Shown: positions 1,432 through 62,712 of the stretch, in pieces
Position numbering within the stretch: position 1 is the stretch's first letter
How the letters are laid out: every line of letters begins with the position of its first letter
From: an uncultured Bacilli bacterium
GTDB lineage: Bacteria; Bacillota_I; Bacilli_A; RF39; UBA660
DNA: 64,000 bases
Reading direction: 5' to 3'
Assembly: GCA_934085595.1 (NCBI GenBank)
Contig: CAKOHK010000005.1
Location: 12,147-76,146 of the forward strand
Notes under the pieces: generated by a model
Seen by the model: the letters and a program-made list of their open reading frames with translations, nothing else
Told to the model about the DNA's origin: nothing
Databases searched by the model: none
Position numbers and translations under genes: made by a program

Positions 1432-3189
1432 CTATTTTTTTATACGAGCCATCCAATTATTAAATATCTGACAGTTAGAACTACTAGGTTCAGGATTTGC
1501 TTTTTCCATCTTAACTATCATAGGTATTTTAAATATTTTACCAAATGCAATACAAGTACCTGGCTGTAATGTCTTTTGTTTTTCTACTATATCCTCACTC
1601 ATATTAGGTACAGAAGCAGCTATATAATCTAAATCCTGAGGATGATTAATCTTAAATATAATAAAATTAGCACACTGACTTATAACATTACTAGAAAGTT
1701 CAGTAGGTCTTTGAGTAATTAAATCCATAATAAGTCCATACTTTCTTCCCTCTTTAGCAATTCTTTCAAATATGTTATATCCAAGTATCTTTTTATCATC
1801 ATTCTCAATTACATATCTATGCGCTTCTTCAAGTATCATATGTATTGGAAATGAAGCTCTATCACTAAGACTTCTAGTATATCTTAAAAATAATCTACCA
1901 AATATTTTAACTATACTACGAGCAAACCTATCATCAACATCTTCTAAATTAAAATTAACTATCTGACACTTCATATTATCTTTAATCTGAAGTCTTTTAA
2001 TATAATTCTCAAGAGTAATAAACTCATTACTAAAAAACTTACTCTTATCTCTTGTAACTAAATCATGTAATCTTACTTTAAGACTCATCGCACTATCATA
2101 CATATCTTCATTAAGTAAATATCTTTCACTATATAAAGTAAAGTTAAGTGCTACTTCTAAATCTTTAAGAGAATATCTAGTATCTTCTATATCAGTAAAG
2201 TTCCATTCTCTCTCTTCATTAATAAATGATTTAATATAATCTGTTATAACAGTACGTTCGGCAAATCTACCTTCCATATCTATATCAAAACAATCTCTAA
2301 ACTTACGTGTAAATCCTATACCTTTAACCTCTGCTTCAAGATTTAACTCTGGTGTATTAGTTTCACTTAATATTTCAAATATCTGATCTCTTATCTTAGA
2401 TGCTGTTTGATTAGTATATATTATTGATGTAATTGCTTTACTAAGAATATGATTCTTAAAATCATGTGCTTCATTATCTTTACGGGCAAACATACGCGCA
2501 TAAACAATTGCTGTTTCAACTATAGCTATTTGTGAAAAATCACTCGCATCAAGTAAATTAAGAACATCTTCAAAATTAAGTAAACAAACAGGTATACTAA
2601 GAGTTTCATAATCAAGTCTAGGATTAGTCGTTATAACTTTAAACTTATAATATTTATTATTATCACTTAACTTACTAAAAGCGTTAATATATTCACCATA
2701 ACTATCAAATATAAAAAGATTAGCTTTATATGGTATAACATCCCCACTAGGAAAAGCATTTTGTATTATTCTACATATACCATTAGTTTTACCACTACCA
2801 GTATTACCAAATATCGCAGTATGATTAGAGAATAAATCATCTATAGAAACATTAAGAGGATACCCATTATATAAAGGACTTATACCAAGAGGTATACTAC
2901 CCCTTTCATTACCAGTAAGTATTTTAAGTTCATCATTATTTATAATTCTAACTTTACTATCCATAGAAGGTTTTCTAATTAAACCACCAATAAAATTATT
3001 AGATGTAAGTTCACCTAAAAAAGAAATATTTACAGTCTCTTCACTAATACTATCTATCTCACCTAATATCTTCTTATCATTATCTTCAAACACAACATGT
3101 AAATTAATTAAATCTTTAATAGCACTCCTATCACCACCAAGTTTAACACTAGCACTATTCTTATTTATAGTAAGTATCCTATCAAACAT
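1432..3189 (-). CDS. HerA/DUF87-like P-loop ATPase
   Basis: 585 aa ORF. Walker A is GNTGSGKTN and the Walker B-like motif is HMILEEAHRY. The C-terminal block RKYGLIMDLITQRPTELSSNVISQCANFIIFKI is typical of HerA/DUF87 ATPases. AGGAG lies upstream of the ATG. Confidence 0.7.
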   Translation of the reverse strand: MFDRILTINKNSASVKLGGDRSAIKDLINLHVVFEDNDKKILGEIDSISEETVNISFLGELTSNNFIGGLIRKPSMDSKVRIINNDELKILTGNERGSIPLGISPLYNGYPLNVSIDDLFSNHTAIFGNTGSGKTNGICRIIQNAFPSGDVIPYKANLFIFDSYGEYINAFSKLSDNNKYYKFKVITTNPRLDYETLSIPVCLLNFEDVLNLLDASDFSQIAIVETAIVYARMFARKDNEAHDFKNHILSKAITSIIYTNQTASKIRDQIFEILSETNTPELNLEAEVKGIGFTRKFRDCFDIDMEGRFAERTVITDYIKSFINEEREWNFTDIEDTRYSLKDLEVALNFTLYSERYLLNEDMYDSAMSLKVRLHDLVTRDKSKFFSNEFITLENYIKRLQIKDNMKCQIVNFNLEDVDDRFARSIVKIFGRLFLRYTRSLSDRASFPIHMILEEAHRYVIENDDKKILGYNIFERIAKEGRKYGLIMDLITQRPTELSSNVISQCANFIIFKINHPQDLDYIAASVPNMSEDIVEKQKTLQPGTCIAFGKIFKIPMIVKMEKANPEPSSSNCQIFNNWMARIKK

Positions 3190-3277: not shown

Positions 3278-5578
3278 TTATTTAACACTAAACACATTAC
3301 TTCCAACTAAACCATTAAACTTATCTGCTTCTGTTTGATTGCGAGCGTAGCCTTTACTCACGCTGCAATTATAAAACATATTACTTATATTAGTTACATT
3401 TGTTGTATCAAAACTACTTAAATCTATAACTGTTGCATCACACATATAAAACATACGGAACATATTCGTTACTTTGCTTGTATCAAAACTACTTAAATCT
3501 AAAACTTCTGCAGAACTTCTATGAAACATAGAATCCATATTTGTTACATTTGAGGTGTCAAAATTACTTAAATTTAAACTTGTGGCTTTGCTACTATAAA
3601 ACATATAACGCATGTTTGTTACATTCGAGGTGTCAAAATTACTTAAATCTAAACTTGTGGCTTTGCTACCAGAAAACATAGAACGCATTTGTATTACTTT
3701 ACTCGTATCAAAACTGCTTAAATCCAGACTTTCTGCAGCACAATCCTGAAACATACCTTCCATACTTGTTACACTACTTGTATTAAAGTTTTTCAAACCT
3801 TTTATTTCCGTTGCAGCAGTACCATAAAACATAGTATCCATATTCGTTACATTTGAGGTATTAAAACTACTTAAATCTAAACTTGTAGCTTTACTACTTT
3901 GAAACATAGCTGCCATATCTTCCACTTTGCTTGTATTAAATTTTTCTAAACCTTTTATTTCAACCGCTGCGCTATCATAAAACATCGCGTGCATATTTGC
4001 TACATTCGAAGTGTCAAAATTTGATAAATCTAATGATATAGCTGAACTATTCATAAACATACCATACATATTGTTTGTTTTACCAGTATCAAAACTACTT
4101 AAATCTAAACTTGTAGCTTTACTATTAGTAAACATATATTTCATATTTGTTACCTTATTTGTATCGAAATTCTCCAAGCCGATTATTTTTGTCGCCGAAC
4201 TATTCATAAACATACCATACATATTGTTTGTTTTACCAGTATCAAAACTACTTAAATCTAGACTTTCTGCAGCACTACTTTGAAACATTTCACTCATATT
4301 CGTTACATTAGACGTATTAAAGTTGCTTAAACCAAGTTCAACTGCTTTGCTACCAGAAAACATTCTCCACATAGTAGTTACTTTTGACGTATTAAAGTTT
4401 TCTAAGCCAATTATTTCTGTTGCGGCACTATCTTTGAACAGTTCATTCATATAAGTTACATTACTCGTATCAAAACTAGATACATCTATACTTGAAGCTT
4501 TGCTATCCCTAAACGTGGCTCCCATTCCAACTACAGGTTTATCATTAACTGTTTTGCACATTTCTGTTATTACTGGATCTGTTGAAGTTGCATCAGTTAA
4601 AATGATACCCCACGCATCATTATATGAATAATATGTATATGTATATTGTCCATCTACAAATTTATTATTTGTAACTTCACCATAACATTTTCTCTTACCT
4701 TTAACATATAAATTATTTATATCATTATCACTTAATTTTACATTAAGAGTTATATTTTCTTTTTTAATTTTAACATTATATTTATTATCTGCTTGAACAA
4801 TATCATTTGTTCCACCCATTAATTTAATTGATGTATTTATTATATTATTATTCTTATTAATATCTAAACTATGATCTCCAAGTTCTACATCATTAAATAT
4901 TACTGTACCATTTTCATCAGTAGTTCCAGTCATTGGATTAGAATGAAGTGTAACTTCACTATTTGCAACAGGTGTTCCATCTGCATTAGATATATTAAGT
5001 GTAAGATTATATGTATTGTAAGCAGGAACTATTCCAAGAACACCATAAAACTTTTTACCTTGATTATAATTCTGTGGTTTATTAGTATAATTTATAAACT
5101 CAATAGTTACAGTATACGTATGAGTTTCACCTGATAATATAAGTGCTGCTTCTTTATATGGATATAATACTTTATTAGTTTCAGCTGTGACTTCGTTTGT
5201 TTGAGGTACTATTACATTATCAGTATTATCACATGTACCTTTAGTAGCTCCACTACTCGTGCATGTACTTCTTATAACAAGTTCATCTTTTTGGATTTCA
5301 TTATAAAGTTTCTGCCAACCTAAAGTGTAATATGCTTCTTCATTACCAGTATTCACTACAGTAATAGTTTTAGTCATTGTCCATCCTGGTTCAATATTAC
5401 TTGCTCTTACTTCTTTTCCATCAGTATACTTAAGCTCAAGTTTAGTAGCACTTACATTTATAGTTTCAGCTACATCATTACCACTTATAGTTAAACTGAA
5501 ATATGCATACGTTAAACCTGCAGTTAATAAGAAAACAACCACAATTAAAACCCCATAAATAAACTTTTTATCTTTCAT
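3278..5578 (-). CDS. surface protein: SipW-type signal peptide + TasA/camelysin-like N-domain + beta-sandwich domain + DUF285/BspA-like leucine-rich repeats
   Basis: 766 aa. The N-terminus MKDKKFIYGVLIVVVFLLTAGLTYAYFS matches the SipW-cognate signal class (AYFS motif). It is followed by TasA-like strands (NIEPGWTMTKTITVVNTGNEEAYY ... [15 protein letters not shown]). The C-terminal half is about 16 repeats of the LDLSSFDTSNVTNMxxMFxxSxAT type. Confidence 0.8.
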   Translation of the reverse strand: MKDKKFIYGVLIVVVFLLTAGLTYAYFSLTISGNDVAETINVSATKLELKYTDGKEVRASNIEPGWTMTKTITVVNTGNEEAYYTLGWQKLYNEIQKDELVIRSTCTSSGATKGTCDNTDNVIVPQTNEVTAETNKVLYPYKEAALILSGETHTYTVTIEFINYTNKPQNYNQGKKFYGVLGIVPAYNTYNLTLNISNADGTPVANSEVTLHSNPMTGTTDENGTVIFNDVELGDHSLDINKNNNIINTSIKLMGGTNDIVQADNKYNVKIKKENITLNVKLSDNDINNLYVKGKRKCYGEVTNNKFVDGQYTYTYYSYNDAWGIILTDATSTDPVITEMCKTVNDKPVVGMGATFRDSKASSIDVSSFDTSNVTYMNELFKDSAATEIIGLENFNTSKVTTMWRMFSGSKAVELGLSNFNTSNVTNMSEMFQSSAAESLDLSSFDTGKTNNMYGMFMNSSATKIIGLENFDTNKVTNMKYMFTNSKATSLDLSSFDTGKTNNMYGMFMNSSAISLDLSNFDTSNVANMHAMFYDSAAVEIKGLEKFNTSKVEDMAAMFQSSKATSLDLSSFNTSNVTNMDTMFYGTAATEIKGLKNFNTSSVTSMEGMFQDCAAESLDLSSFDTSKVIQMRSMFSGSKATSLDLSNFDTSNVTNMRYMFYSSKATSLNLSNFDTSNVTNMDSMFHRSSAEVLDLSSFDTSKVTNMFRMFYMCDATVIDLSSFDTTNVTNISNMFYNCSVSKGYARNQTEADKFNGLVGSNVFSVK
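3358..4522 (-). repeat. in-frame DUF285/BspA-like repeat array (~24-26 codon units)
   Basis: Periodic xLDLSxFDTSxVTxMxxMF units are visible in the translation. A 64-nt exact repeat occurs at 4044-4107 and 4197-4260. Confidence 0.85.
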
Positions 5579-5604: not shown

Positions 5605-5633
5605 ATTATAAAGGTCCCACTCCCTCATGTCAA
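5605..5633 (-). promoter_or_regulatory. sigma-A type promoter, TTGACA-17 nt-TATAAT
   Basis: On the minus strand, TTGACA lies at 5633-5628, the 17-nt spacer at 5627-5611 and TATAAT at 5610-5605. The leader ATAGAGAATAGAGGTACATGT then runs into the ATG at 5578. Confidence 0.65.
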
Positions 5634-7801: not shown

Positions 7802-10800
7802 TTATTGTATCACAAACGGATTACTAGCACTTCCATTACCTGATACATATTTTACACTTGATGAAAGATATACAGAAGGACGTAAATTACCATTTGCATT
7901 ACTTGAAGTATCAAAACTTACTATACCACTACCGTACACACGCATCGAAACATTAGAACGGAAAGAACAAGGTGATAAAGTCCAGAACCAATTATCTGTA
8001 TCTATAATCCAATCAGTACTCATACATGTTCCAGCGAAGTTATTTCCTGAAGTACCATTGTTATAGCATTCACTACTACCATACATATAATCACTTGGAT
8101 ATATTAATGCTACTTTTCCATCCCATGTTTGACTATTTCCGCTATGCACACTTGTACTTCTTTCTTGATTATACATTTCATCCGTAGTTCCAACACCAGG
8201 TCCATTAGACCACACCACATTACCCAAATACCATTTTGTACTACTTATCTGATTTTTTGCTTCAGATGTTAAACCATTACTTGCATATGTACCAGTTCTA
8301 TTATAATATTCACCGCTATTTAGTGTTGTCATTAATGTTGAAGTTGTCCAATCGCTATAGTTTATAGTTGAATTAGAACTCCACGCTGATTTTCCTATTT
8401 TATTTCTTACTAGTTTTATTTTATACTCTTTCATATATCCGTTGCCATTAGGCGTTTGAACTTCAAACACACCAATAATTCTCCACACTCCAGTTTCACC
8501 ATTGAATGTTATATAATTGTTTGGATTTGCTCCTTGATATCTATATTCAGTTGTTGCATAAGTTTGATTCCCTGTTGATGTTTGGTCTATTTTTGTTAAA
8601 CCTAAAGCACTATAATTACCGATTAAATAATAAGCAAATGTCGAAACTTTCCAATGAGCATACAATGTCTGAGTTGTAGTGATTGATACAGTTGAACTCG
8701 CTTTTATTTGTGTTCCACTTGTTGCACTTGTAAACCATCCTATAAACTCATGTCCAGGCTTAGTTGGAGTTGGTAAAGTTCCATATTTAGCACCATATGT
8801 TACAGTCATACTTGATGTTGAAACACTTCCACCATTAGCATTAAAGTTTACTGTATATTTATTTGCAGTATAATTAGCTGTTAGTGTTGTGCTTCCACTT
8901 CCCATTGTTAGAGTTGTACCACTTAATGTTGCATTACCAGACTTTGTCCAGTTTGAAAATGTATATCCTTTTTTTGTAGGATTTGATATTGTTTTAGTAG
9001 CTTCATAATATTCACTACTTACTGTATTTGATGTACTTCCATTATAAGTTCCACCATTTGGATTTATAGTAAGAGTATATTTATTTCTTGTATAATTATA
9101 AGTTACCACATTCTTAGTACTTGGTTTATCCGAATCAATTGCTATTGTAATTGTTTTTGTTGATGGACTTGTAAACCCTGTATATGTTTTTACAGATGGT
9201 GTTACTTTTGATAAATAATCAGCTTCACCTTCTTCTGTATCAGCACTTACTAATGTATAAGTACTTCCATCAACATTCATTTTATTATGATATGCTACCC
9301 ATGGATAAGTATTTGCTTTCCAGTGTGCATATAATGTTTGATTTGCTGTAATAGTTACTGATGAATCTTCTTTTATTTGGAGTCCACTACTTGCATCTGT
9401 AAACCATCCTAAAAATACATATCCATCTCTTGTTGCAGTTGGTAATTCTCCATAAGTTCCATTATATGTAACATCTTTACTTGCAGTATCAACATCTCCT
9501 CCATTAGCATTAAAACTTACTGTGTATTTATTTGCTTCATAATTGGCTGTTAGTGTTGTATTTTCACTTCCTATTGTAAGTGTTGTATCTGTTAAAGTTG
9601 AATTACCTGTCTTAGTCCACTTTGTAAATGTATATCCAGTTTTAGTTGGACTCTTTATTGCTTTAACAGCTTCAAAGTATTCACTTGTTGTAGTACTTGA
9701 TGTATTTCCATTATATGTTCCTCCATTAGGATTTATTGTAAGTGTATATTTATTTCTATCATAATTATAATTTACTACATTCTTAGTGCTTGGTTTTGTA
9801 TCCACCACTATTGTTATTGTTTTTGATGCTGGACTTGTAAATCCAGTATATGTGTTTACTGTAGGTGTAACTTTACTTCCAAAGTCAGCTGTACCCTCTT
9901 TTGTATCTGCACTTACTAAAGTATATCCACTTCCAGTTACATTCATTTTATTATGATATGCTATCCATGGATAAGAATTGATAGCCCAATTAGCAGTTAA
10001 TGTACAGTCTTCAAGTCCCATAGTTAATTTCTTTCCGTTTAATGAAGCCTTATCACTGCTTACTGCCCATCCAGTAAATGTATATCCCTCTCTTACTGGA
10101 TCAGATATATCTACATCTGTTCCGTATGTCACACTTGATGTTTTAGTTTCAGTACTTCCATTATAACTTCCGCCATTTGGATTAATAGTTAAATCATAAT
10201 TATTTTGTCTCCATGTCGCAGTTACTTTAGTTTCTTCTATTCCCATTACTAATGTTTTACTTCCATTACTTGTTTCAGCAACTTTCGTACTCATCATTCT
10301 TACTTTATTAGTAAGCATAGCTGTACTTGAATCTTTTAATGTACTTTTCTCTCCTGTAACATTCCATCCGCTAAATGTATATCCTTCTCTTGTTGGATCA
10401 CTTAATTCTATTTCATTTTTATATCTTTCACTTGTTGTTATGCTTCCGGTTGAACCTTTATATGTTCCTCCTGCTGGATCTATTGTTAGATTAGATATTG
10501 GTGTTAAATCTTTATATATTACATTTCCATCTATATTTTTAACCCATAATTTCTTATCATAATCATCCACTTTATCACTAACTGTATACTCATTTTTGCT
10601 TACATTCTTCCATGATGATGGCTCTTCTGCATCAGCACTTGTTACTGCATATGCACTAAGTCCATTTGTATCTTTTAATAAAGCAGTTAATAATAAATTA
10701 TCTATTTTTGCATTATTTATTACTGGTACATTTGAATCATTAAAGTTATATTCATTTATTTGTATCTTTCCTATAAACTTTTTACCTTGATTATAATTTT

Positions 10801-11335
10801 GTACAGAACCAGTTTCAACAAATGTTATAGTTAATTTATATTTATTTGTTACACCAACTTTAATAGGATTATTCCCTTTTAACTTTTGTGATGTTGGTAC
10901 TTCACTATATATAAAAGGTGTTGTTCCTTGTCCATCACATGTTCCTATTCCTGTTTGACCCTCTTGTCCATATTTTTCATAACTAACACAGTCTAAACTA
11001 AAGACAAGTTCATCCTTTTCAATAGTATTAATCATATCAACCATATTAATATCAAACTCTGTATCAAAGTCACCTGTATTCGTTACAGTAAACTCTTTAA
11101 TTAATGTTTTACCCGGCTGTATATTATCCACTTTTAACTCTGGACCACTATTATAAAATAATGATAAATTACCAGTAGTAACTCTTATATCTTGTGCTTC
11201 TTCATTACCATTTACAGTAATACTAAAATACGCATAAGATACACCAATTACTAATAATAAACCTAATACTACAGATAAATAAATCACACTTTTATTTTTA
11301 AACAACTCTTTAAAATTGATACTTTTCATATACAC
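7802..11335 (-). CDS. large surface protein: SipW-type signal + TasA-like N-domain + Listeria-Bacteroides (Flg_new) repeats + DUF6273-like C-terminal domain
   Basis: 1177 aa. Signal [12 protein letters not shown]. TasA-like block [21 protein letters not shown] ... [15 protein letters not shown]. Multiple YTVxFNANGG...GYxFxGWFT...QTLYAHW repeats. The C-terminal domain has the landmarks [15 protein letters not shown] and NLRPSVYL. Confidence 0.8.
8645..9979 (-). repeat. tandem in-frame duplication of a ~666-nt (222-codon) module
   Basis: Unit 1 starts at [14 protein letters not shown] (nt 9979 downward) and unit 2 at [14 protein letters not shown] (nt 9313 downward). Both end in QTLYAHWK and are colinear throughout. 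Confidence 0.85.
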
Positions 11336-12560: not shown

Positions 12561-13310
12561 CTACTTTTCCACAAATCCATCTGTTATCATCTTAGCAACT
12601 ATACCATGACTGCCAAGTTCACTACTACTAAGATCATATAACCCTACTACTCTCCACATAACTTCATGGAATAAATAATTATTTTTTTCTTGTCCTGATA
12701 TTATACAAGCATTTACTTTTTCTCCAGTTTTAGTGTCTATTAATTTTGTTGGATTATCACTCTTATCACATTTACATGTCGCATCACTAGTATCATATTT
12801 CCCTATAAATGATCCATTTTCAAATCTTTCACATATAGCTTTAGTAAGTTCACTATTATCTGTATCAGTTGATTTACCATTAAAATCAGCAATAACCCCT
12901 ACTGTATCTTTAGTTAAAAGAACATAATCAGAGTTCATACTTTTTTTAGTAACTGGATTTACAATACATCCTTTACTTGTTACTTCTACTCCTTCTATTA
13001 ATGTTTTTAAACAAGTTCCGCTACTTAATTCACCATCTTTAGTAGATTCTACTTTTAAATAATCTTGATTTATTAAATCAACTACATATAGTTTAACTTC
13101 ACTTTGTCCATTAAATACTTCAGGTTTATTAGTGGCATATAATTCAGCAGCACTCTTTATCATATCTACTTTTTCATTATACATTCTCTTATTTATATTT
13201 TTATTAATTAATGAAATACTTGGAATAGCTATCGCACTCAAAACTCCAATTATCGCAATAACAACCAAAACCTCTGTAAGCGTAAAACCATATTTATTTT
13301 TCATATCCAC
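12561..13310 (-). CDS. type IV pilin-like / pseudopilin protein (prepilin N-terminal cleavage-methylation motif)
   Basis: 249 aa. N-terminus MDMKNKYG/FTLTEVLVVIAIIGVLSAIAIP, i.e. class III signal G-FTLxE followed by a hydrophobic helix. Confidence 0.75.
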   Translation of the reverse strand: MDMKNKYGFTLTEVLVVIAIIGVLSAIAIPSISLINKNINKRMYNEKVDMIKSAAELYATNKPEVFNGQSEVKLYVVDLINQDYLKVESTKDGELSSGTCLKTLIEGVEVTSKGCIVNPVTKKSMNSDYVLLTKDTVGVIADFNGKSTDTDNSELTKAICERFENGSFIGKYDTSDATCKCDKSDNPTKLIDTKTGEKVNACIISGQEKNNYLFHEVMWRVVGLYDLSSSELGSHGIVAKMITDGFVEK

Positions 13311-18410: not shown

Positions 18411-19418
18411 TTAAATTACTCCTCTCTTCTTAAGTTCTTTAAGTACCAAACTATTATCTTCTTCAAGTCTATCTATATCTACCACATCACATACACGTTT
18501 AAACTCTTCCATTATTTCACTAGGATCACTACATTTAAGTTTGTTAAATTCTTCTACAAACTTATTCCTAAGTTCATTATTTTCTTTAATCATCACTTTA
18601 AAAGCATCACAATTATTTAAAACACTTCTACCACATAAAGCATTCAAACAATATTCAGCATCTAAAGCATTCTCTTTATACCCTTTAATACATAATGAAT
18701 TAGAAAACATTAATAAATAACTATTAGGAAAATATTCTTTTACATCTACACCAATTACAATTGCTACTAAAAGTAAATATATAATAAAAGCAATAAAAAC
18801 AGCAAGCGTATTTAAACCAACATGGTCATAAAGAACTATATTTTTAATTACTTCTTTTATTTCTTCTTCATTTAATAGATCTCCACTTTCAGATATACTT
18901 TCCATAGTACTAATATAATCAATGCCCATTTCTTCTAGATTTAGTTTTAAATATTCTTCTAAATCCATCTCACCAAGACTACTAATATCATATGTCCTAA
19001 CTTCTCTTTCACTTTTCATGTTCCATGGCTCATATATTTTAATATATGTTCCCTCACTAGCTTCATTAATAGGTACATATTTTTCTTCTTTACTATATCC
19101 AGTTTCTTCGTTGTATGCAAGTGCTGCACTATATACCACTTGATAATTATCATTAAGTACTTTATCACTTAACTCAAAATATCCCTTTGAAACACCGAAA
19201 AATATACCTATAGACGCAATCAAAGTTATTATTCTTTCTTTAATTTCTTTTTTATTTATATCACGAATTCTAGAATATTTGGCAATTTCATTAACAACAC
19301 TTCTCATTCCAGATTCTTTAATTTTATTATTACTTTTTTCAATACTATGAAGTATATCATAAACTTCTTCTTCGTTTACTTCTTCTACTTTTTTAACATA
19401 TGCTTTACTGCTTTCCAT
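18411..19418 (-). CDS. uncharacterised two-TM protein, paralog P1 of a six-gene array
   Basis: The ORF extends to 19469, but by homology with its paralogs the start is MESSKAYVKKVEE at 19418. Conserved blocks are YNEETGYSKEE, IKIYEPWNMKSEREVRTYDISSL, EEYLKLNLEEMGIDY and ELRNKFVEEFNKLKCSDPSEIMEEF. Confidence 0.7.
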   Translation of the reverse strand: MESSKAYVKKVEEVNEEEVYDILHSIEKSNNKIKESGMRSVVNEIAKYSRIRDINKKEIKERIITLIASIGIFFGVSKGYFELSDKVLNDNYQVVYSAALAYNEETGYSKEEKYVPINEASEGTYIKIYEPWNMKSEREVRTYDISSLGEMDLEEYLKLNLEEMGIDYISTMESISESGDLLNEEEIKEVIKNIVLYDHVGLNTLAVFIAFIIYLLLVAIVIGVDVKEYFPNSYLLMFSNSLCIKGYKENALDAEYCLNALCGRSVLNNCDAFKVMIKENNELRNKFVEEFNKLKCSDPSEIMEEFKRVCDVVDIDRLEEDNSLVLKELKKRGVI

Positions 19419-20421
19419 CAATACCCCTCTTCTTAAGTTCTTTAAGTACCAAACTACTTTCTTTTTCAAGTCTATCTATATCAACTTTACTACAAAGAGC
19501 CCTAAACTCTTCCATTATCTCACTCGGATCACTACATTTAAGTTTATTAAACTCTTCTACAAACTTATTCCTAAGTTCATTATTATCTTTTATCATATCT
19601 GTAAGACGGCACATATTCTCTAACAAATCTCTATTATATTCAGATTTAATATATCGCTTATAAAAATTTGCTTCTTCCATGTAAACTTTTAAACTACATA
19701 CATTACCTAGAACAAAACAATAACTTTCAGCATCAAGCATTCCAACATCAACATATATAATAGCTAGTATTATTAAAGCATATATCAAAACAGTAGCTAA
19801 AGAATAAGAAGTGTCTACTTTAGTTTGATCACTATATATTATCTTTTTAACAACTTCTCTTACTTCTTCTTGATTAAGCAAAACATCACTTCCAGATAAA
19901 TTTTCAATAGTACTAGTATAATCTATTTCCATTTCTTCTAGATTAAGTTTCAAATATTCTTCTAGTTCCATATCACTAAGGCTACTTATATCATATGTTT
20001 TAATTTCTCTTTCACCTTTCATATTCCATGGCTCATATACTTTTATATACGCTTCTTCATTAGCATCTTTAATTGGTATATACTCTTCTTCTTTACTATA
20101 TCCAGTTTCTTCGTTATATGTAAGTGTAACACTATTAACAGTTTGAAAATTATCATTAAGTATCTTATTACTTAACTCTTTACATCCTTTTGAAAATCCA
20201 AAGAATATAGTTAAAGATGCAATCAAAGCAAGTATTCTTTTTCTAACTTCTCTTTTATTTTCTTTATATCCTTTAATACTTCTAACTGCATTATAAATAT
20301 CATTTTGTATTCTAAAATTATCTATTTCTTTATTACTTTCTTCAATTTTTTGAAGAATATCATACACATCCTCTTCATTTACTTCTTCTACTTTTTTAAC
20401 ATATACTTTACTGTTTTCCAT
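19405..20421 (-). CDS. uncharacterised two-TM protein, paralog P2
   Basis: 338 aa. Same architecture: acidic N-terminus, TM1 ILALIASLTIFFGF, an ~120 aa loop domain, TM2 LATVLIYALIILAIIYV and a conserved C-terminal helical region. Confidence 0.75.
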   Translation of the reverse strand: MENSKVYVKKVEEVNEEDVYDILQKIEESNKEIDNFRIQNDIYNAVRSIKGYKENKREVRKRILALIASLTIFFGFSKGCKELSNKILNDNFQTVNSVTLTYNEETGYSKEEEYIPIKDANEEAYIKVYEPWNMKGEREIKTYDISSLSDMELEEYLKLNLEEMEIDYTSTIENLSGSDVLLNQEEVREVVKKIIYSDQTKVDTSYSLATVLIYALIILAIIYVDVGMLDAESYCFVLGNVCSLKVYMEEANFYKRYIKSEYNRDLLENMCRLTDMIKDNNELRNKFVEEFNKLKCSDPSEIMEEFRALCSKVDIDRLEKESSLVLKELKKRGIDGKQ

Positions 20422-21421
20422 TAATACCTCTCTTCTTAAGTTCTTTAAGTATTAAACTATTTTCTTTTTCAAATTTGTCAATATCAGCTTCTTTACAAAG
20501 AGCTCTATACTTTTCCATTATCTCACTAGGATCACTACATTTAAGTTTATTAAACTCTTCTACAAACTTATCTCTAAGTTCATTATTTTCTTTAATCATA
20601 TCTGTAAGATGACACATATTCTCTAATAAATCTCTATTAAATTCAGATTTTATATTTCGCTTATAAAAATCCGTTTCTTCCAAACAAACTTTTAAACTAC
20701 ATATATTACCCAGAACAAACCAATAACTATCAGCATCAAGTATTCCAATATCTACATATATAATAGCTAATAATATTATAATATATATAAGTATTGCTTC
20801 AAATGAAGAAAGAACATCATTCTTAGTTTGATCATAATAAACCATCTTTTTAACAACTTCTCTTACTTCTTTCTCATTTAGCAAGACACTGCCTGATAAC
20901 GTTTCAAATACACTAGTATAATCTATACCCATATCTTCAAGATTAAGTTTTAAATATTCTTCTAGGTCCATATCACTAAGACTACTTATGTCATATGTTC
21001 TAATTTCTCTTTCCTTTTTCATATTCCATGGTTCATATACTTTAATATATGTTTCTTCTTTAGCATATTTAATTGGTATATACTCTTCTTGTTTACTATA
21101 TCCAGTTTCTTCATTATACGTAAGTGTAACACTATTAACAGTCTGAAAATTATCACCAAGTACTTTTTCACTTAATGCCATATATCCTTTTGAAACACCA
21201 AGAAATACAGTTAAAGAAGCAATCAAAGCAAGTATTCTTTTCATAATTTCATTTTTGTTTTCTTTATACTCTTTAATACTTGTAACAGCACTATAAACAT
21301 CATTTTGTATTCTAAAATTATCTATTTCTTTATTACTTTCTTCAATTTTTTGAAGAATATCATACACATCCTCTTCATTTACTTCTTCTACTTTTTTAAC
21401 ATATGCTTTACTGTTTTCCAT
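20408..21421 (-). CDS. uncharacterised two-TM protein, paralog P3
   Basis: Start MENSKAYVKKVEE (ATG at 21421, alternative at 21424). Close paralog of P2 and P4. Confidence 0.75.
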   Translation of the reverse strand: MENSKAYVKKVEEVNEEDVYDILQKIEESNKEIDNFRIQNDVYSAVTSIKEYKENKNEIMKRILALIASLTVFLGVSKGYMALSEKVLGDNFQTVNSVTLTYNEETGYSKQEEYIPIKYAKEETYIKVYEPWNMKKEREIRTYDISSLSDMDLEEYLKLNLEDMGIDYTSVFETLSGSVLLNEKEVREVVKKMVYYDQTKNDVLSSFEAILIYIIILLAIIYVDIGILDADSYWFVLGNICSLKVCLEETDFYKRNIKSEFNRDLLENMCHLTDMIKENNELRDKFVEEFNKLKCSDPSEIMEKYRALCKEADIDKFEKENSLILKELKKRGINGKQ

Positions 21422-22436
21422 CAATGCCTCTCTTCTTAAGTTCTTTAAGTATTAAACTATTTTCTTTTTCAAGTCTATCTATATCTACCATATCACATAC
21501 ACGTCTAAACTCTTCCATTATTTCACTAGGATCACTACATTTAAGTTTATTAAACTCGTCTACAAACTTATCTCTAAGTTCATTATTCTCTTTAATCATA
21601 TCCGTAATATGACATATATTCTCTAACATTTTTATACTACATCTATAATTTATTTCCTCTTTATCGTATTTTGCAGCATCTACACAATCTATCAAACAAC
21701 CTAAATTGCCTAGAACAAAACAATAACTTTCAGCATCAAGTAACTCAACATCAACATATATAATAGCTAGTATTATTAAAACATATATCAAAACAGTAGC
21801 TAAAGAATAAGAAGTGTCTACTTTAGTTTGATCACTATATATTATCTTTTTAACAACTTCTCTTACTTCTTCTTGATTTAGCAAAACATCACTTCCAGAT
21901 AAATTTTCCTTAGTACTAGTATAATCTATACCCATTTCTTCTAGATTAAGTTTCAAATATTCTTCTAATTCCATATCACTAAGACTACTTATATCATATG
22001 TTTTAACTTCTCTTTCTCTTTTCATATTCCATGGTTCATATACTTTTATATAAGTTCCTTCTTCAGCTTTACTTACAGGCACCCATTTTTCATTTTTACT
22101 ATATCCATTTTCTTCATTATACGCAAGTGTAACACACTTAACATCTTGAAGAGTATTATTAAGTACTTTTTTACTTAATGATATATACCCTTTTGAAGCA
22201 CCTATAAATACAGTTGTAGCCGCAATTAAAGCAAGTAATCTCTTTAGAGCTCTTTTTTTACTTTCTTTATACTCTTCAATTTTTTTAACCATCATATAAA
22301 TATTATTATTCCATCTAGAAGATTCTATTTCTTTATTACTTTCTTCTATTTGCTGAAGCATATCATAGATATCCTCTTCATTTATCTCTTCTACTTTTTT
22401 AACATATGCTTTATCACTATTCATTTCATTCTCCAC
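21408..22436 (-). CDS. uncharacterised two-TM protein, paralog P4
   Basis: 342 aa with the same conserved blocks. Confidence 0.75.
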   Translation of the reverse strand: MENEMNSDKAYVKKVEEINEEDIYDMLQQIEESNKEIESSRWNNNIYMMVKKIEEYKESKKRALKRLLALIAATTVFIGASKGYISLSKKVLNNTLQDVKCVTLAYNEENGYSKNEKWVPVSKAEEGTYIKVYEPWNMKREREVKTYDISSLSDMELEEYLKLNLEEMGIDYTSTKENLSGSDVLLNQEEVREVVKKIIYSDQTKVDTSYSLATVLIYVLIILAIIYVDVELLDAESYCFVLGNLGCLIDCVDAAKYDKEEINYRCSIKMLENICHITDMIKENNELRDKFVDEFNKLKCSDPSEIMEEFRRVCDMVDIDRLEKENSLILKELKKRGIDGKQ

Positions 22437-23460
22437 TATATTTTAAAGTTTTAACCATTTTATTATATTTATCACTTAAACTTGATGTATCTACTTCACT
22501 ACATACACGTTTAAATTCTTCCATAATCCCACTAGGATCACTAAAATCAAATTTATTAACTTCATGTGCGAACTTATTTCTAAGTTCATCGTTTCTTTTA
22601 ATTATTTCAGTCATTAAAACACTATATTCAAGCATACTTCTTAAATCATATTCATTATTAATAGTTTCAGTATATGATTTAATATATCGTTTATTAGATT
22701 TAATTTCATCAATATCATCAAAAAATCTATACATAAATGTATCACGTCCAGCATTTTCAAACACAATCGAAAATACTACATAAAGAGCCAATAATCCAAA
22801 AAACAAAGGAATAATTCCTTCATATACATCCATATTAGTTTTAGCATCATCTGGATATATAACTTTTTTAACGACTTCTCTTACTTCTTCATTGTTAAGT
22901 ATTGTATGTTCATTATCTTTTAATGTTTCAATTATTGTAGTATAATCTATCCCCATTTCTTCTAGATTAAGTTTTAAATATTCTTCTAGTTCCATATCAT
23001 CAAGATTACTAACGTCATATACTTTAACTTCTCTTTCACTCTTCATATTCCATGGTTCATACACTTTAATATATGTTTCGTTTTTACCATCACTTACTTT
23101 AATATCTTCTATATCTTTACTATACCCAGTCACTTCATTATAACTAAGCGTAGCGCATGGCATTAATTTATTTTTAGAAGCTACTAACGCTGTAACCCCA
23201 CCATATGTAAGAACAGCGCCAGATATAATACTAATTGATGTAATCAAAGAAACCATTCTTTTTTTAAGATCTTTTTTATATTCTTCTAAACTTCTAATGT
23301 ACCTCAAAACCTTATCATATTCATATTCAATTATTACATCTTTTTTATTAGTAAAATCTTTATTACTATTTTCTATCTCATGTAAAGTATCATAAACACT
23401 ATTTTCATCCATTACTTCAGCACTTACTTTACATTCTTTATCCAAACTAACACTATTCAT
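22426..23460 (-). CDS. uncharacterised two-TM protein, paralog P5 (diverged)
   Basis: 344 aa. Retains YNEVTGYSKDIE, IKVYEPWNMKSEREVKVYDVSNL, EEYLKLNLEEMGIDYTT and ELRNKFAHEVNKFDFSDPSGIMEEF. Confidence 0.7.
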   Translation of the reverse strand: MNSVSLDKECKVSAEVMDENSVYDTLHEIENSNKDFTNKKDVIIEYEYDKVLRYIRSLEEYKKDLKKRMVSLITSISIISGAVLTYGGVTALVASKNKLMPCATLSYNEVTGYSKDIEDIKVSDGKNETYIKVYEPWNMKSEREVKVYDVSNLDDMELEEYLKLNLEEMGIDYTTIIETLKDNEHTILNNEEVREVVKKVIYPDDAKTNMDVYEGIIPLFFGLLALYVVFSIVFENAGRDTFMYRFFDDIDEIKSNKRYIKSYTETINNEYDLRSMLEYSVLMTEIIKRNDELRNKFAHEVNKFDFSDPSGIMEEFKRVCSEVDTSSLSDKYNKMVKTLKYSGE

Positions 23461-24487
23461 AAATCCCCCTCTTCTTTAATAACATTTGCACTTCATCATA
23501 TCTAGAAAATATAGATGAATCTATCATATCACATACATTACTAAACTCTTCCATAATCCCACTAGGATCACTACATGAAAGTTTATTAAATTCTTCTATA
23601 AATTTATTTTTAAGTTCTTCATTTTCTTTAATTATTGAAGTCATCAAAACACAGTATTCAAGCATACTTCTTAAATCATATTTATTAATTTTACTATTAA
23701 TTATCTTAACATTCCATTTATTTTTATTAATATTTTCAGATTCATTATAAAATTTATACGTAAAACTTTTTTTTAAGTTAACTGAAAATATCCAATAAAT
23801 AAAAATTGATACAATATATAAAAGTAGACTCAATCCATATACTAAAGTATTAGCTTTAGCTTTATCAGGATATGAAGTTGTTCTAACAACTTCTCTTACT
23901 TCATCACTATTAAGTATTGTTTCTTCATTATCACTTAATGTTTCTATTAATGTAGTATAATCTATTCCCATTTCTTCTAAATTAAGTTTTAAATATTCTT
24001 CTAGTTCCATATCACTAAGACTACTCACATCATATGTTTTAACTTCTCTTGTTGTGTCTATACCCCAAGGTTCATATACTTTAATATATGTTTTACTCTC
24101 GCCTTCACCAAACTTAACATATTCTATATCCTTACTATAACCAGTTACTTCATTATAAGTAAGTGTTGCACTTGGCATTACTTTATTCCTTGAAGCTATC
24201 AAAGCAGTCAATCCACCATATCCAAGAGTTGCTCCTGCTAAAATGCTAAATGATGTTAATAAGGAAACAATACTTTTTTTAATTTCTTTTTTATATTCAG
24301 ATAAACGCGTAGAATTATCTATAAACGCAGAAATATATCTTTCTATCTGATTACTATTATTATTTTTTAAAGTAATATTATTTCTTCTTATTTTTTCTAA
24401 AGTATCATAAACATCCTCTTCATAAGTGCTTTCACTATCATTAGATTCTAATTTATCATTTTTTTCTCTATCATATGCAAATCCCAT
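23453..24487 (-). CDS. uncharacterised two-TM protein, paralog P6 (diverged, first gene of the array)
   Basis: 344 aa. Retains YNEVTGYSKDIE, IKVYEPWGIDTTREVKTYDVSSL, EEYLKLNLEEMGIDYTT and ELKNKFIEEFNKLSCSDPSGIMEEF. GGGGGA lies upstream of the ATG. Confidence 0.7.
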   Translation of the reverse strand: MGFAYDREKNDKLESNDSESTYEEDVYDTLEKIRRNNITLKNNNSNQIERYISAFIDNSTRLSEYKKEIKKSIVSLLTSFSILAGATLGYGGLTALIASRNKVMPSATLTYNEVTGYSKDIEYVKFGEGESKTYIKVYEPWGIDTTREVKTYDVSSLSDMELEEYLKLNLEEMGIDYTTLIETLSDNEETILNSDEVREVVRTTSYPDKAKANTLVYGLSLLLYIVSIFIYWIFSVNLKKSFTYKFYNESENINKNKWNVKIINSKINKYDLRSMLEYCVLMTSIIKENEELKNKFIEEFNKLSCSDPSGIMEEFSNVCDMIDSSIFSRYDEVQMLLKKRGIYE

Positions 24488-37607: not shown

Positions 37608-38282
37608 TTAAATAATATTTTTCTCTTCTATATTATCATTAAACTTATATACTTTAGCAGGCTTAGTACCTCTAAATATAGCTTGCTCATTAATATCTCT
37701 AATTATGTTAGAAGTAATCATTTTCTTTCTAAAGTTTCTTCTATCTAATTTTCTTTCTAAAATAGTTTCACATACGCCCTGTAATTCAGGTAATGTAAAC
37801 TCATATGGAAAGAATCCCTTTAATATATTTGTTTTAACTATTCTTTTCTTAAGTTCAAGAGTGGCACGATCAAATATCTCATTATGATCATAAGCCATAG
37901 TTGGCATATCTTTTATATCAAACCACCCAGCATCACATGTTTTAAGTGTATCCTTTAATATAGTTACAGTTTTAGCATCTATAATACCTATAAAACCAAA
38001 CGCAATCATTCTCTTAAGCGGAGATCTATTTATATTATCAAAGTAATCATAGAAAAATAAATTATCATTCACAATCCCAGTTTTTTCAGCAAGTTCTCTT
38101 TTAGCGGCATTCATAATAGTTTCATTATTATACATAGCTCCACCAGGTAAAGCCCATAGTCCATAAAAAGGTTCATTTTTTCTCTTAACAAGTAGCACTC
38201 TTGTTACACCTTTAATTACAGTAAATAAACAAATATTTACATGTATACCAATATTATTATATAAAGGATTCTTAAGTTCCAT
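37608..38282 (-). CDS. NrtR-like Nudix-related transcriptional regulator
   Basis: The likely start is MELKNPLY at 38282 (GGAGTG upstream); the ORF extends to 38324. Nudix box GGAMYNNETIMNAAKRELAEKTG plus a C-terminal winged-helix signature FTLPELQGVCETILERKLDRRNFRKK. Confidence 0.7.
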   Translation of the reverse strand: MELKNPLYNNIGIHVNICLFTVIKGVTRVLLVKRKNEPFYGLWALPGGAMYNNETIMNAAKRELAEKTGIVNDNLFFYDYFDNINRSPLKRMIAFGFIGIIDAKTVTILKDTLKTCDAGWFDIKDMPTMAYDHNEIFDRATLELKKRIVKTNILKGFFPYEFTLPELQGVCETILERKLDRRNFRKKMITSNIIRDINEQAIFRGTKPAKVYKFNDNIEEKNII

Positions 38283-38357
38283 AATAATCACTCCTAATAT
38301 AATTATAGTGTAATTACTACACAAGTCAAATACTTTTTAAAAAACAAATCACATTTC

Positions 38358-38407: not shown

Positions 38408-40474
38408 TTAATTTTTAACTGTAAATATAGTTTTACCTGCTTCATTATTAAACTTATCTGCTTCATCTTGGCTACGAGCATAACCATTTTTTATTTTACT
38501 AGACAAAAACATATCACTCATATCTGTTACGTTTGATGTATCAAAACTACTTAAATCCAAACTTGTAGCACGACTAAAAGAAAACATACTACTCATATTA
38601 GTTACTTTTGATGTATCAAAATTACTTAAATCTAAACTTGTTGCTTGACTCTCTCTAAACATATAACTCATATCAGTTACATTTGATGTATTAAAATTGC
38701 TTAAATTTAAACTAGTTGCTTGACTGCCATAGAACATTTTATACATAGCAGTTACTTTTGATGTATCAAAACTACTTAAATCGAGGCTTGTTGCTTTACT
38801 ATTATTAAACATACCTTCCATATTAGTTACATTAGAAGTATCAAAACTACTTAAATCCATACTTGTAGCTTGACTACCTGAAAACATATAATTCATATCT
38901 GTTATGTTTGATGTATCAAAACTACTTAAATCTAAACTTGTTGCTTGACTACCTGAAAACATAAGACCCATAATAGTTACATTAGTAGTGTTAAAACTTC
39001 TTAAATTTAATGTTGTGGCTTGACTATTTTCAAACATACAGCCCATATTAGTTACTTTTGATGTATCAAAACTACTTAAATCTAAACTTGTAGCTTGACT
39101 CCACTCAAACATAAAACTCATATCTGTTACGTTTGATGTATCAAAATTACTCAAATCTAAGCTAGTGGCTTTACTGCCATCAAACATAAAACTCATATCT
39201 GTTACTTTTGATGTATCAAAACTACTTAAATCTAAACTTGTCACTTTACTATCTCTAAACATATTACTCATATCTGTTATGTTTGATGTATCAAAACTAC
39301 TTAAATCTAAACTTGTAGCTTGACTATTTCTAAACATATTACTCATATTAGTTACTTTTGATGTATCAAAACTACCTAAATCTATACTAGTGGCTTGACT
39401 TTGATAAAACATACCACTCATATCAGTTACATATTTATCATTAATCATATAACACAATTCAGTAGTTACTGGATCAGTCGATTCATGATCAGTTAAATAA
39501 ACATGCCATCCATTTGTATCAGAATCAAAAACGTATCCATATTGTCCATCTACAAATGTTGTAGCCCCTTCATCAGTTGAACATCTTCTTTGACCTTTAA
39601 TATATAAGTTATTTATATCACTATCACTTAATTTTACATTAAGTGTTATATTCTCTTTTTTAGCTTTAATGTTATATTTATTATCAGTTTGAATAGTACT
39701 ATTAGTTCCACCCATTAATTTAATTGATGTATTTATTGTATTATTATTCTTATTAATATCTAAACTATGATTTCCAAGTTCTACATCATTAAATATTACT
39801 GTACCCTTTTCATCAGTAGTTCCCGTCATTGGATTAGAATGAAGTGTTACTTCACTATTCGCTACAGGTGTTCCATCTGCATTAGATATATTAAGTGTAA
39901 GATTATATGTATTGTAAGCAGGAACTATTCCAAGCACACCATAGAACTTTTTACCTTGATTATAATTTTGAGGTTTATTTGTATAATTTATAAATTCAAT
40001 AGTTACAGTATATGTATGTGTTTCACCTGGTAATATAAGCACTGCTTCTTTATATGGATATAATACTTTATTAGTTTCAGCAATTACTTCTGCAGTTTCT
40101 GGAACAACAACATTATCAGTATTATCACATGTACCTCCAGTAGCTCCACTACTTGTACATTCACTTCTTATAACAAGTTCATTTTTTTGAATCTCATTAT
40201 ATAGTTTCTGCCAACCTAAAGTATAATAAGCTTCTTCATTACCAGTATTTACTACAGTAATAGTTTTAGTCATAATCCATCCAGGCTCTATATTAGTTGC
40301 TTTTACTTCTTTTCCATCAGTATATTTAAGTTCTAACTTTGTAGTATCCACATTTATTGTTTCAGCTACATCATTACCACTAACAGTTAAACTAAAATAA
40401 GCATATGTGAGACCAACTGTTAATAAAAATACTGCTACCAGCATACTTACAAACATAAACTTTTTATCTTTCAT
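38408..40474 (-). CDS. surface protein: SipW-type signal + TasA-like N-domain + beta-sandwich + DUF285/BspA-like repeats (paralog of 3278..5578)
   Basis: 688 aa. The first ~297 aa are near-identical to the 3278..5578 product. The C-terminal array has ~13 ATSLDLSSFDTSxVTxMSxMF units. Confidence 0.8.
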   Translation of the reverse strand: MKDKKFMFVSMLVAVFLLTVGLTYAYFSLTVSGNDVAETINVDTTKLELKYTDGKEVKATNIEPGWIMTKTITVVNTGNEEAYYTLGWQKLYNEIQKNELVIRSECTSSGATGGTCDNTDNVVVPETAEVIAETNKVLYPYKEAVLILPGETHTYTVTIEFINYTNKPQNYNQGKKFYGVLGIVPAYNTYNLTLNISNADGTPVANSEVTLHSNPMTGTTDEKGTVIFNDVELGNHSLDINKNNNTINTSIKLMGGTNSTIQTDNKYNIKAKKENITLNVKLSDSDINNLYIKGQRRCSTDEGATTFVDGQYGYVFDSDTNGWHVYLTDHESTDPVTTELCYMINDKYVTDMSGMFYQSQATSIDLGSFDTSKVTNMSNMFRNSQATSLDLSSFDTSNITDMSNMFRDSKVTSLDLSSFDTSKVTDMSFMFDGSKATSLDLSNFDTSNVTDMSFMFEWSQATSLDLSSFDTSKVTNMGCMFENSQATTLNLRSFNTTNVTIMGLMFSGSQATSLDLSSFDTSNITDMNYMFSGSQATSMDLSSFDTSNVTNMEGMFNNSKATSLDLSSFDTSKVTAMYKMFYGSQATSLNLSNFNTSNVTDMSYMFRESQATSLDLSNFDTSKVTNMSSMFSFSRATSLDLSSFDTSNVTDMSDMFLSSKIKNGYARSQDEADKFNNEAGKTIFTVKN
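38488..39415 (-). repeat. in-frame DUF285/BspA-like repeat array
   Basis: Regular ~72-75 nt periodicity (SQATSLDLSSFDTSNVTDMSxMF). Confidence 0.85.
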
Positions 40475-40500
40475 ACATGTACCTCTATTCTCTATTTATA

Positions 40501-40532
40501 ATTATATCAGTACCCCCCCCCCCCCATGTCAA
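40501..40532 (-). promoter_or_regulatory. promoter TTGACA-20 nt-TATAAT whose spacer contains a G13 (plus-strand C13) homopolymer
   Basis: On the minus strand, TTGACA lies at 40532-40527 and TATAAT at 40506-40501. The spacer at 40526-40507 reads TGGGGGGGGGGGGGTACTGA. The same leader as the paralogs follows. Confidence 0.6.
40513..40525. repeat. 13-nt C/G homopolymer tract
   Basis: Counted directly: 8 C at 40513-40520 plus 5 C at 40521-40525. This is exceptional in such an AT-rich sequence. Confidence 0.95.
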
Positions 40533-40584
40533 GTGGCAAACAAAAAGCAAACACTATAAGTTTAATGTTCACTTTAATTTTCAC

Positions 40585-40661
40585 TGGCGTCCCCGATTGG
40601 AATCGAACCAACGACCTATTGCTTAGGAGGCAATCGCTCTATCCTACTGAGCTACGAGGAC
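40585..40661 (-). tRNA. tRNA-Arg (anticodon CCT)
   Basis: The reverse complement reads GTCCTCGTAGCTCAGTAGGATAGAGCGATTGCCTCCTAAGCAATAGGTCGTTGGTTCGATTCCAATCGGGGACGCCA. It has a 7-bp acceptor stem, a GTTCGATTC T-loop, anticodon loop CT-CCT-AA and an encoded CCA. Confidence 0.9.
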
Positions 40662-40676
40662 AAAAAAGATATATAA

Positions 40677-41057
40677 TTATATCCATCTAGGTATATATAA
40701 GTTTCTAGTATACCCATCAAGATATTTATTATATAACATAATTATTGAATTTACTATATAAAGTAATATATCTTTTTCACCCTTAGGTGCTTTAAGTACC
40801 TTTAAATGATTATTTAAATTATTTCTAAATTCTCTATCATCAAAATATTTATTAACTGCATTATTAAGCGCAACAGCTCTTTTTAATGCATTTTTTTCTT
40901 TTTCATCAACACCGAATATATAAGATTGATATATCTGAATAACTTTATCACTCATCTTATCATTTTCACTAAATCTCTCATTTATAATCTTATAATAGTC
41001 TTTACAATATTTAATAATAATTTTATTTCTTAAAAACCTATTTTCCACTATAATCAC
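40677..41057 (-). CDS. hypothetical protein (126 aa)
   Basis: The ORF overlaps the rseP stop by 4 nt, so it is probably co-transcribed. No recognisable motifs. Confidence 0.45.
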   Translation of the reverse strand: MIIVENRFLRNKIIIKYCKDYYKIINERFSENDKMSDKVIQIYQSYIFGVDEKEKNALKRAVALNNAVNKYFDDREFRNNLNNHLKVLKAPKGEKDILLYIVNSIIMLYNKYLDGYTRNLYIPRWI

Positions 41058-62322: not shown

Positions 62323-62655
62323 TTATATTAATTTATTATAAATACACACTATAACTAATTCTTCTTTCTGAATCTCGTTATAAAGTTTCTGCCAACTTAA
62401 AGTATAATATGCTTCTTCATTACCAGTATTCACTACAGTAATAGTTTTAGTCATGGTCCATCCCGGTTCTATATTAGTTGCTTTTACTTCTTTTCCATCA
62501 GTATATTTAAGTTCTAACTTTGTAGTATCTACATTAATAGTCTCAGCTACATCATTACCACTAACAGTCTGGCTAAAATACGCATAAGTAAGTCCTACTG
62601 TTAATAAAAAAATTGCCACTAATATACTTGCAAACAAAAACTTTTTACCTTTCAT
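62323..62655 (-). pseudogene. truncated copy (first ~100 codons) of the SipW-signal/TasA-like surface protein family
   Basis: MKGKKFLFASILVAIFLLTVGLTYAYFSQTVSGNDVAETINVDTTKLELKYTDGKEVKATNIEPGWTMTKTITVVNTGNEEAYYTLSWQKLYNEIQKEELVI is near-identical to 38408..40474. It then diverges and stops after 9 more codons. Confidence 0.65.
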
Positions 62656-62681: not shown

Positions 62682-62712
62682 ATTATACAGGCACCCCCCT
62701 CCCCCATGTCAA
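62682..62712 (-). promoter_or_regulatory. promoter TTGACA-19 nt-TATAAT with interrupted G tract (G5AG6) in the spacer
   Basis: On the minus strand, TTGACA lies at 62712-62707 and TATAAT at 62687-62682. The spacer reads TGGGGGAGGGGGGTGCCTG. The same leader cassette follows. Confidence 0.55.

Follow-up and report, generated by a model that had tools for sequence, protein, structure and literature searches.

The window analysed here, a stretch of 64,000 nucleotides, derives from an uncultured low-GC Firmicute of the human gut which is known from metagenomes, Hadza samples included, and in which the cell-wall markers PASTA kinase, EzrA, and a CHAP protein were found. From 38408 to 40474 its minus strand carries a gene for a protein of 688 amino acids, consisting of a signal peptide with the motif TYAYFS, a domain tentatively likened to TasA, camelysin, and BsaA, and 11-12 PARCEL (DUF285) repeats of 25 amino acids, to which 12.3 tandem units of 75 nucleotides correspond in the DNA (38506 to 39430, minus strand). 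Matches to PF03382 (E 8e-78; score 258 bits, cut-off 25) and to TIGR02167 (E 2e-88, in 11 stretches) assign the protein to the PARCEL/DUF285 repeat family of surface proteins. The designation as an adhesin, which had been used in a previous sequence-only reading of this DNA, is a presumptive one derived from the signal peptide and the PARCEL/DUF285 repeats.

The N-terminal domain of about 185 amino acids gave borderline matches to PF12389 (camelysin/TasA) and to TIGR04090 (BsaA, SipW-dependent); for a remnant of the family the scores were 33.8 bits with TIGR04090 (cut-off 60) and 22.4 with PF12389 (cut-off 22.5). Modelling of the N-terminal part with AlphaFold gave a confident beta-rich core (mean pLDDT 65.5 for the model), and a Foldseek search with the model yielded a weak match to the TasA fibre 8aur (E 8.6e-4, TM 0.28-0.33). 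The likeness to Bacillus subtilis TasA and Clostridium perfringens BsaA comprises an AYFS-type motif in the signal peptide and weak matches to PF12389, TIGR04090, and the fold, but none of the sequence scores exceeds its curated cut-off, and TasA and BsaA lack the C-terminal PARCEL repeat domain of the 688 amino acid protein. Given this weak fibre match, the term TasA-like is used tentatively for the N-terminus, and adhesin is used as a provisional label. A sequence search of the PDB with the 688 amino acid protein gave no match, and the 28 open reading frames of the window which were scanned did not include a sipW gene.

Family members in the window are three close copies, namely the 688 amino acid gene, a copy of 766 amino acids (3278-5578), and a truncated remnant of 110 amino acids (62323-62655), and one distant copy of 1177 amino acids. 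The latter (7802-11335, minus strand) shares 39% identity with residues 23-183 of the 688 amino acid protein and has a camelysin/TasA-like N-terminus followed by Listeria-Bacteroides (Flg_new) repeats, not PARCEL repeats. Near this member a ComGC/type IV pilin-like protein with a prepilin N-terminal methylation motif is encoded (12561-13310, minus strand); BsaA of C. perfringens is reportedly secreted via a type IV pilus-associated system (PMC11580942). Beyond the window, the N-terminal domain was matched by 255 protein clusters from gut metagenomes, the C-termini of which are highly diverse. At the locus of the 688 amino acid gene, next to a tRNA-Arg gene, the alleles range from 470 to 741 amino acids, often in steps of about 25 amino acids (window 38506-39430, L017-L031), and this suggests that variation in PARCEL repeat number may be a second layer of surface variation.

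The tRNA-Arg(CCT) gene, which serves as the landmark of this locus, is the co-oriented upstream neighbour (40585..40661, minus strand). Between it and the promoter, and directly abutting the -35 hexamer, lies a terminator-like AU/GU-rich hairpin (40575-40544) with a U-rich tail (40543-40537; feature 40537..40575, minus strand) with a predicted folding energy of -13.6 kcal/mol and a z score of -3.2. Hairpins at the equivalent position were found at the L013 locus (z -3.4) and at the TruA locus, here with a z score of -1.7, which is not significant. The hairpin upstream of the 688 amino acid gene should keep transcription of the tRNA gene from reading through into the promoter. It was not called by an automated terminator scan because it has too few G-C pairs. 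In one assembly (L019:1632-1800, ERZ27287381) and at five similar places the sequence diverges wholly about 10 nucleotides past the 3' end of the tRNA-Arg gene, and no family gene is found there; the flank of this tRNA gene thus appears to be a variable region or an insertion hot spot. Directly downstream of the 688 amino acid gene is an NrtR-like Nudix/winged-helix regulator (37608-38324, minus strand), and downstream of the 766 amino acid copy a HerA-like helicase (1432-3189, minus strand) with sub-threshold matches to anti-phage HerA models. Between rlmN and the genes downstream of it there are six tandem open reading frames of about 338-352 amino acids (18411-24487, minus strand), which may be a paralog array; five of the six were scanned against Pfam and gave no matches.

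In front of the 688 amino acid gene a perfect consensus -35 hexamer TTGACA (40527..40532) and a perfect consensus -10 hexamer TATAAT (40501..40506) are found on the minus strand. They are separated by a spacer of 20 nucleotides (40507..40526) composed of a T, an uninterrupted run of 13 G (40513..40525, C13 on the plus strand), and TACTGA, so that the minus strand reads TTGACA-T-GGGGGGGGGGGGG-TACTGA-TATAAT from 40532 to 40501. The end of the spacer contributes the TG (40509-40508) of an extended -10 element (TGnTATAAT). The ATG at 40474 is 26 nucleotides downstream of the -10 hexamer, behind a short conserved leader (40475..40500, minus strand) with the ribosome binding site AGAGG (40486-40482), and a block of 28 nucleotides is identical in all three window copies of the leader region. 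The two hexamers are predicted to work as the promoter of the 688 amino acid gene, which would be of the sigma-A/sigma-70 type, with transcription probably starting about 7 nucleotides past the -10 hexamer. The sequence-only reading had described the G13 tract and its 20 nucleotide spacer with exact coordinates and counts.

In the 64 kb of the window this tract is the only run of G or C of seven or more nucleotides, and even the longest runs of A or T do not exceed 8, despite a GC content of 27% (24-30% across the window). Six windows of eight consecutive G were observed, all within the G13 tract, while 0.02 are expected from dinucleotide-preserving shuffles. The tract thus far exceeds what would arise by chance, as had been claimed. 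It is also well above the length of about 8 nucleotides from which homopolymers are prone to slippage. An automated promoter scan of the window did not call the G13 promoter, because its spacer is outside the range of 16-18 nucleotides. With G13, the hexamer which stands 17 nucleotides from the -10 is ACATGG; it has no match to the consensus at any of its six positions, and therefore a cryptic rescue promoter is excluded. Short plus-strand open reading frames across the tract (40407-40559 and 40526-40690) were regarded as spurious. The only match of an Rfam scan of the window was a tRNA, and the tract is therefore overlapped by no known RNA element.

Promoters of the family were collected from 46 loci besides the window, giving 50 occurrences of the motif. 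The TTGACA and TATAAT hexamers are unchanged in all 50 of them, and the homology of the family starts at about the -35 box. In intact alleles other than the one with the poly-G tract the spacer is an interrupted G-rich sequence of 17 nucleotides, present at three loci in 22 assemblies and in the 5578 copy of the window, and it varies by substitutions alone. The promoter of the 766 amino acid copy (5605..5633, minus strand) has the spacer TGAGGGAGTGGGACCTT, and at this TruA-adjacent locus the 17 nucleotides are identical in all ten other assemblies, which bears out the earlier description of this promoter as optimal and fixed. At the tRNA-Arg locus the other alleles (470-741 amino acids) have a spacer of exactly 17 nucleotides in 11 assemblies, with four substitution variants and not a single change in length. 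The extended -10 TGATATAAT is confined, among the family promoters collected, to the poly-G alleles (TACTGA or TATTGA). As controls, the promoters of two other family members, which are without G runs, were likewise unchanged (P0034 in six assemblies, P0042 in four).

Spacers of other lengths are found at truncated copies. The promoter of the 110 amino acid remnant (62682..62712, minus strand) has a 19 nucleotide spacer, T-G5-A-G6-TGCCTG; here, as for the 17 nucleotide interrupted spacer of the 5578 copy, the sequence-only reading was accurate. At the EzrA locus, to which this remnant belongs, the one intact allele, of 534 amino acids (L028), has 17 nucleotides, and truncated remnants of 110 and 89 amino acids have 19, 18, or 12. 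A remnant of 122 amino acids (L013-L016) has the promoter TTGACA-G7TACCTT-TATAAT with 13 nucleotides between the hexamers. The G5AG6 and G7 runs are reproduced identically in seven and four assemblies, respectively. In one sample (ERZ27287315, L041:1015-1040, EzrA locus) the spacer is just 12 nucleotides long, TGGGGGTGCCTG, which corresponds to a deletion of 7 nucleotides between the G runs of G5AG6; slippage-type events therefore occur in the interrupted tract too. Every change in spacer length in the 50 promoter occurrences maps to the G-rich segment. Together, the conservation of these promoters indicates that the distance between the -35 and the -10 hexamer is under constraint in the family.

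Further poly-G cases were not found among the cluster mates P0122-P0124, of which two have the ancestral 17 nucleotide spacer, while another two are cut off at the contig edge and lack the promoter. An exact scan for the promoter pattern in the GTDB species representatives gave no matches, and a protein-seeded scan of the same representatives retrieved only relatives from a rabbit "uncultured Bacilli" metagenome-assembled genome, with an identity of about 30%. A scan of JGI metagenomes found a single locus, the EzrA-locus remnant L004.

The comparison set for the tract consists of short-read metagenome assemblies, which are consensus sequences and some of which have a coverage of only about fivefold. 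The identical 688 amino acid protein is encoded on eight contigs from several samples, and the promoter of this allele was inspected in four distinct assemblies. In addition to the G13 of the window, a G9 tract with a spacer of 16 nucleotides was found in sample ERZ27287326 (L001), a G12 tract with a spacer of 19 nucleotides in sample ERZ27287082 (L002), and again G13 with 20 nucleotides in a Hadza sample (L003, ERZ4559679, coverage 5.2), all in front of the identical 688 amino acid protein. Comparing tract lengths among isolates had been proposed along with the idea of a switch, and the series of G9, G12, and G13 is the outcome which that idea predicts. Fragments from ERZ27287326 cover 13,177 base pairs of the window at three loci without a single substitution; the sole difference is a gap of 4 nucleotides in the tract. 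As there are no substitutions in 13,177 base pairs and yet G9 in one assembly and G13 in the other, the tract mutates far faster than the flanking DNA. The Hadza fragments equal the window sequence, G13 included. The tract is hypermutable, and its changes shift the spacing of the -35 and -10 hexamers between 16 and 20 nucleotides.

In L002 (L002:1-1443) the 688 amino acid gene with the G12 promoter is joined at the -35 box (window 40536) to unrelated upstream DNA with an uppS-like gene which is absent from the window, and besides G12 this promoter has two further substitutions. Either the cassette of promoter and gene has indeed recombined into another locus, or the promoter is a paralogous one, or the shared 5' cassette has led to a chimeric join in the assembly.

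The variation between G9, G12, and G13, the 17 nucleotide spacers of the other intact alleles, and the invariance of promoters free of G runs all indicate that the tract is derived and hypermutable. The ancestral spacer of the family is the interrupted G-rich 17-mer TGAGGGAGTGGGACCTT. Three substitutions in it would give a pure run, T-G11-ACCTT, still with 17 nucleotides, so that the derived allele probably started at optimal spacing and slipped afterwards. The reading which is favoured here, and which is considered rather probable, is that G13 is a slippage-prone homopolymer in a promoter spacer which acts as a length-dependent expression switch of a PARCEL surface protein. Slipped-strand mispairing at replication would add or remove G residues and thereby alter the distance between the -35 and the -10 hexamer, giving 16 nucleotides with G9, 17 with G10, 19 with G12, and 20 with G13. 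The altered spacing would lead to a heritable and, in principle, reversible change in promoter strength. The optimum is predicted at G10 with 17 nucleotides; G13 and G12 are predicted to be weak or OFF, and for G9, as found in the clonal relative, the ON state is predicted. In Gram-positive bacteria an extended -10 can lessen the dependence on the -35 hexamer. The extended -10 of the poly-G allele may therefore soften the OFF state, with expression lowered rather than abolished at G13, and due to this element the tract may adjust expression as a volume control, not as an on/off switch. As a candidate for phase variation the locus has gained support from the observed hypermutability and change in spacing, and an effect of tract length on expression, frequent and reversible switching, adaptive value, and selection for switching would be presumed from these observations.

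Decay of the promoter is the most serious alternative, although an unlikely one. Here the G-rich spacer, being prone to insertions and deletions, would have become a homopolymer which now drifts neutrally or degeneratively in the course of early pseudogenisation. This is a live rival because the remaining spacers deviating from 17 nucleotides all precede truncated remnants, at the EzrA locus (110 and 89 amino acids; 19, 18, or 12 nucleotides) as well as in the 122 amino acid case (G7, 13 nucleotides), and for the same reason the G-rich spacer seems to gather insertions and deletions under relaxed selection. The intact EzrA-locus allele has kept its 17 nucleotides, unlike the remnants there. 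Of three independent observations of the 688 amino acid allele, two have long spacers (19-20 nucleotides), and relaxed selection fits this as well as switching does. The reading frame, however, is intact and identical on all eight contigs, the 12 tandem repeats included, and a near-optimal variant of 16 nucleotides (G9) exists in a clonal background. The 688 amino acid allele has moreover gained the TGn of an extended -10, which is unexpected in a decaying promoter. This very element is the starting point of another and considerably less probable explanation, in which the promoter, owing to the extended -10, hardly depends on the -35 hexamer, tract length has little effect, and the G-rich spacer is a regulator site or a structural element. 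The restriction of TGATATAAT to poly-G alleles is in line with it. A sequence-specific role is also suggested by the maintenance of a G-rich spacer (GAGGGAGTGGGA) at three chromosomal loci in a genome with 27% GC. On the other hand, every other intact allele strictly keeps a perfect TTGACA and the 17 nucleotide spacing, and this strictness speaks for a role of the -35 hexamer and of its distance. No regulator and no operator symmetry were identified. A G-quadruplex was rejected as well, since 13 G do not suffice to build a stable one of three tetrads and the tract is part of double-stranded DNA.

Least probable of all, and hardly to be expected, is that the tract lengths differ merely by Illumina homopolymer errors or by choices of the assembler. 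All data compared are short-read metagenome assemblies, with a coverage as low as that of L003, homopolymers of 12-13 can be miscalled by one nucleotide in either direction, and the G12 of L002 is located in a possibly chimeric join. Nevertheless, G13 is agreed upon by the window and the independent Hadza assembly. The G9 variant is located on a contig of 54 kb which is otherwise identical to the window, and its difference of 4 nucleotides is larger than typical miscalls. Since also the shorter runs (G5AG6 and G7) are faithfully repeated across assemblies, a pure artefact is unlikely.

The mechanism proposed for the poly-G tract is already known, as is the pairing of PARCEL genes with promoter repeats. 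Treponema pallidum tp0126 and Neisseria meningitidis porA have a poly-G tract between the -35 and -10 hexamers, with an optimum at 17 nucleotides, and the length of these tracts varies among and within strains (PMC7864442). [quoted passage not shown] It differs from them in that the host is an uncultured gut commensal of Gram-positive type which is known from consensus assemblies alone, in the additional extended -10 of the promoter, and in the restriction of the homopolymer to one allele lineage, the usual state in the species being an interrupted, stable spacer of 17 nucleotides. In Mycoplasma hyorhinis a poly-A tract in the promoter spacer controls expression of the vlp genes. The PARCEL (Vmc) genes of Mycoplasma capricolum have contingency promoters with repeats in the 5' flank (PMC2996958). 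Like the present genes, the vlp and Vmc genes form multigene families which encode variable, repeat-containing surface proteins; within each family a conserved 5' cassette of promoter, leader, and signal peptide is shared, and the 5' flank contains a homopolymer or a dinucleotide repeat. With Vmc also the PARCEL/DUF285 repeats as the variable surface module are shared. The Vlp and Vmc proteins, however, are lipoproteins of wall-less Mollicutes with tracts which are mostly poly-A or TA, whereas the 688 amino acid protein has a SipW-type (TasA/BsaA-like) signal peptide, a walled host, and a poly-G tract.

Tracts of up to G13 are found near surface-protein genes in spma of Mycoplasma agalactiae (PMC2824730), and poly-G contingency loci have been described in Campylobacter (PMC8355987). 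In these cases, as in the window, a long poly-G run is conspicuous in a very AT-rich genome and adjoins surface-protein genes. The spma tracts, however, are located in the 5' untranslated region and those of Campylobacter are mostly intragenic and act by frameshift, whereas the present tract is placed exactly in the promoter spacer. Repeat-variable BspA-like genes have furthermore been observed in metagenome reads of Candidatus Mycoplasma girerdii (PMC5476646).

A wider interpretation, which is speculative and somewhat less probable than promoter decay, regards the G-rich 17 nucleotide spacer as a "proto-contingency" element which, at several chromosomal loci, turns repeatedly into slippage-prone G runs (so far G7, G5AG6, G9-G13). 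Multi-locus combinatorial surface variation would result if the cassette of promoter, leader, and signal peptide also recombined at the -35 box and the number of PARCEL repeats changed. Recombination of the cassette between loci is suggested by the junction at the -35 box in L002. If this interpretation were true, combinatorial surface variation in the style of Mycoplasma would operate in an uncultured walled gut Firmicute, and the birth of a contingency locus would have been captured within a natural population.

Most documented cases of phase variation driven by repeats come from pathogens, among them Neisseria, Haemophilus, Campylobacter, Treponema, and Mycoplasma. Whether this restriction to pathogens is real or a bias of the databases is asked in a recent review (PMC11868660), and the locus described here provides a candidate from an uncultured gut commensal, a group in which repeat-driven phase variation is little documented (PMC11868660). 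Ancestral stable and derived hypermutable promoters stand side by side in one species, and as both promoter states coexist there, the origin of a contingency locus should be amenable to study in existing metagenome reads. The surface protein may be expressed in only a part of the population, which would bear on strain-level gut metagenomics and on targeting by antibodies (IgA).
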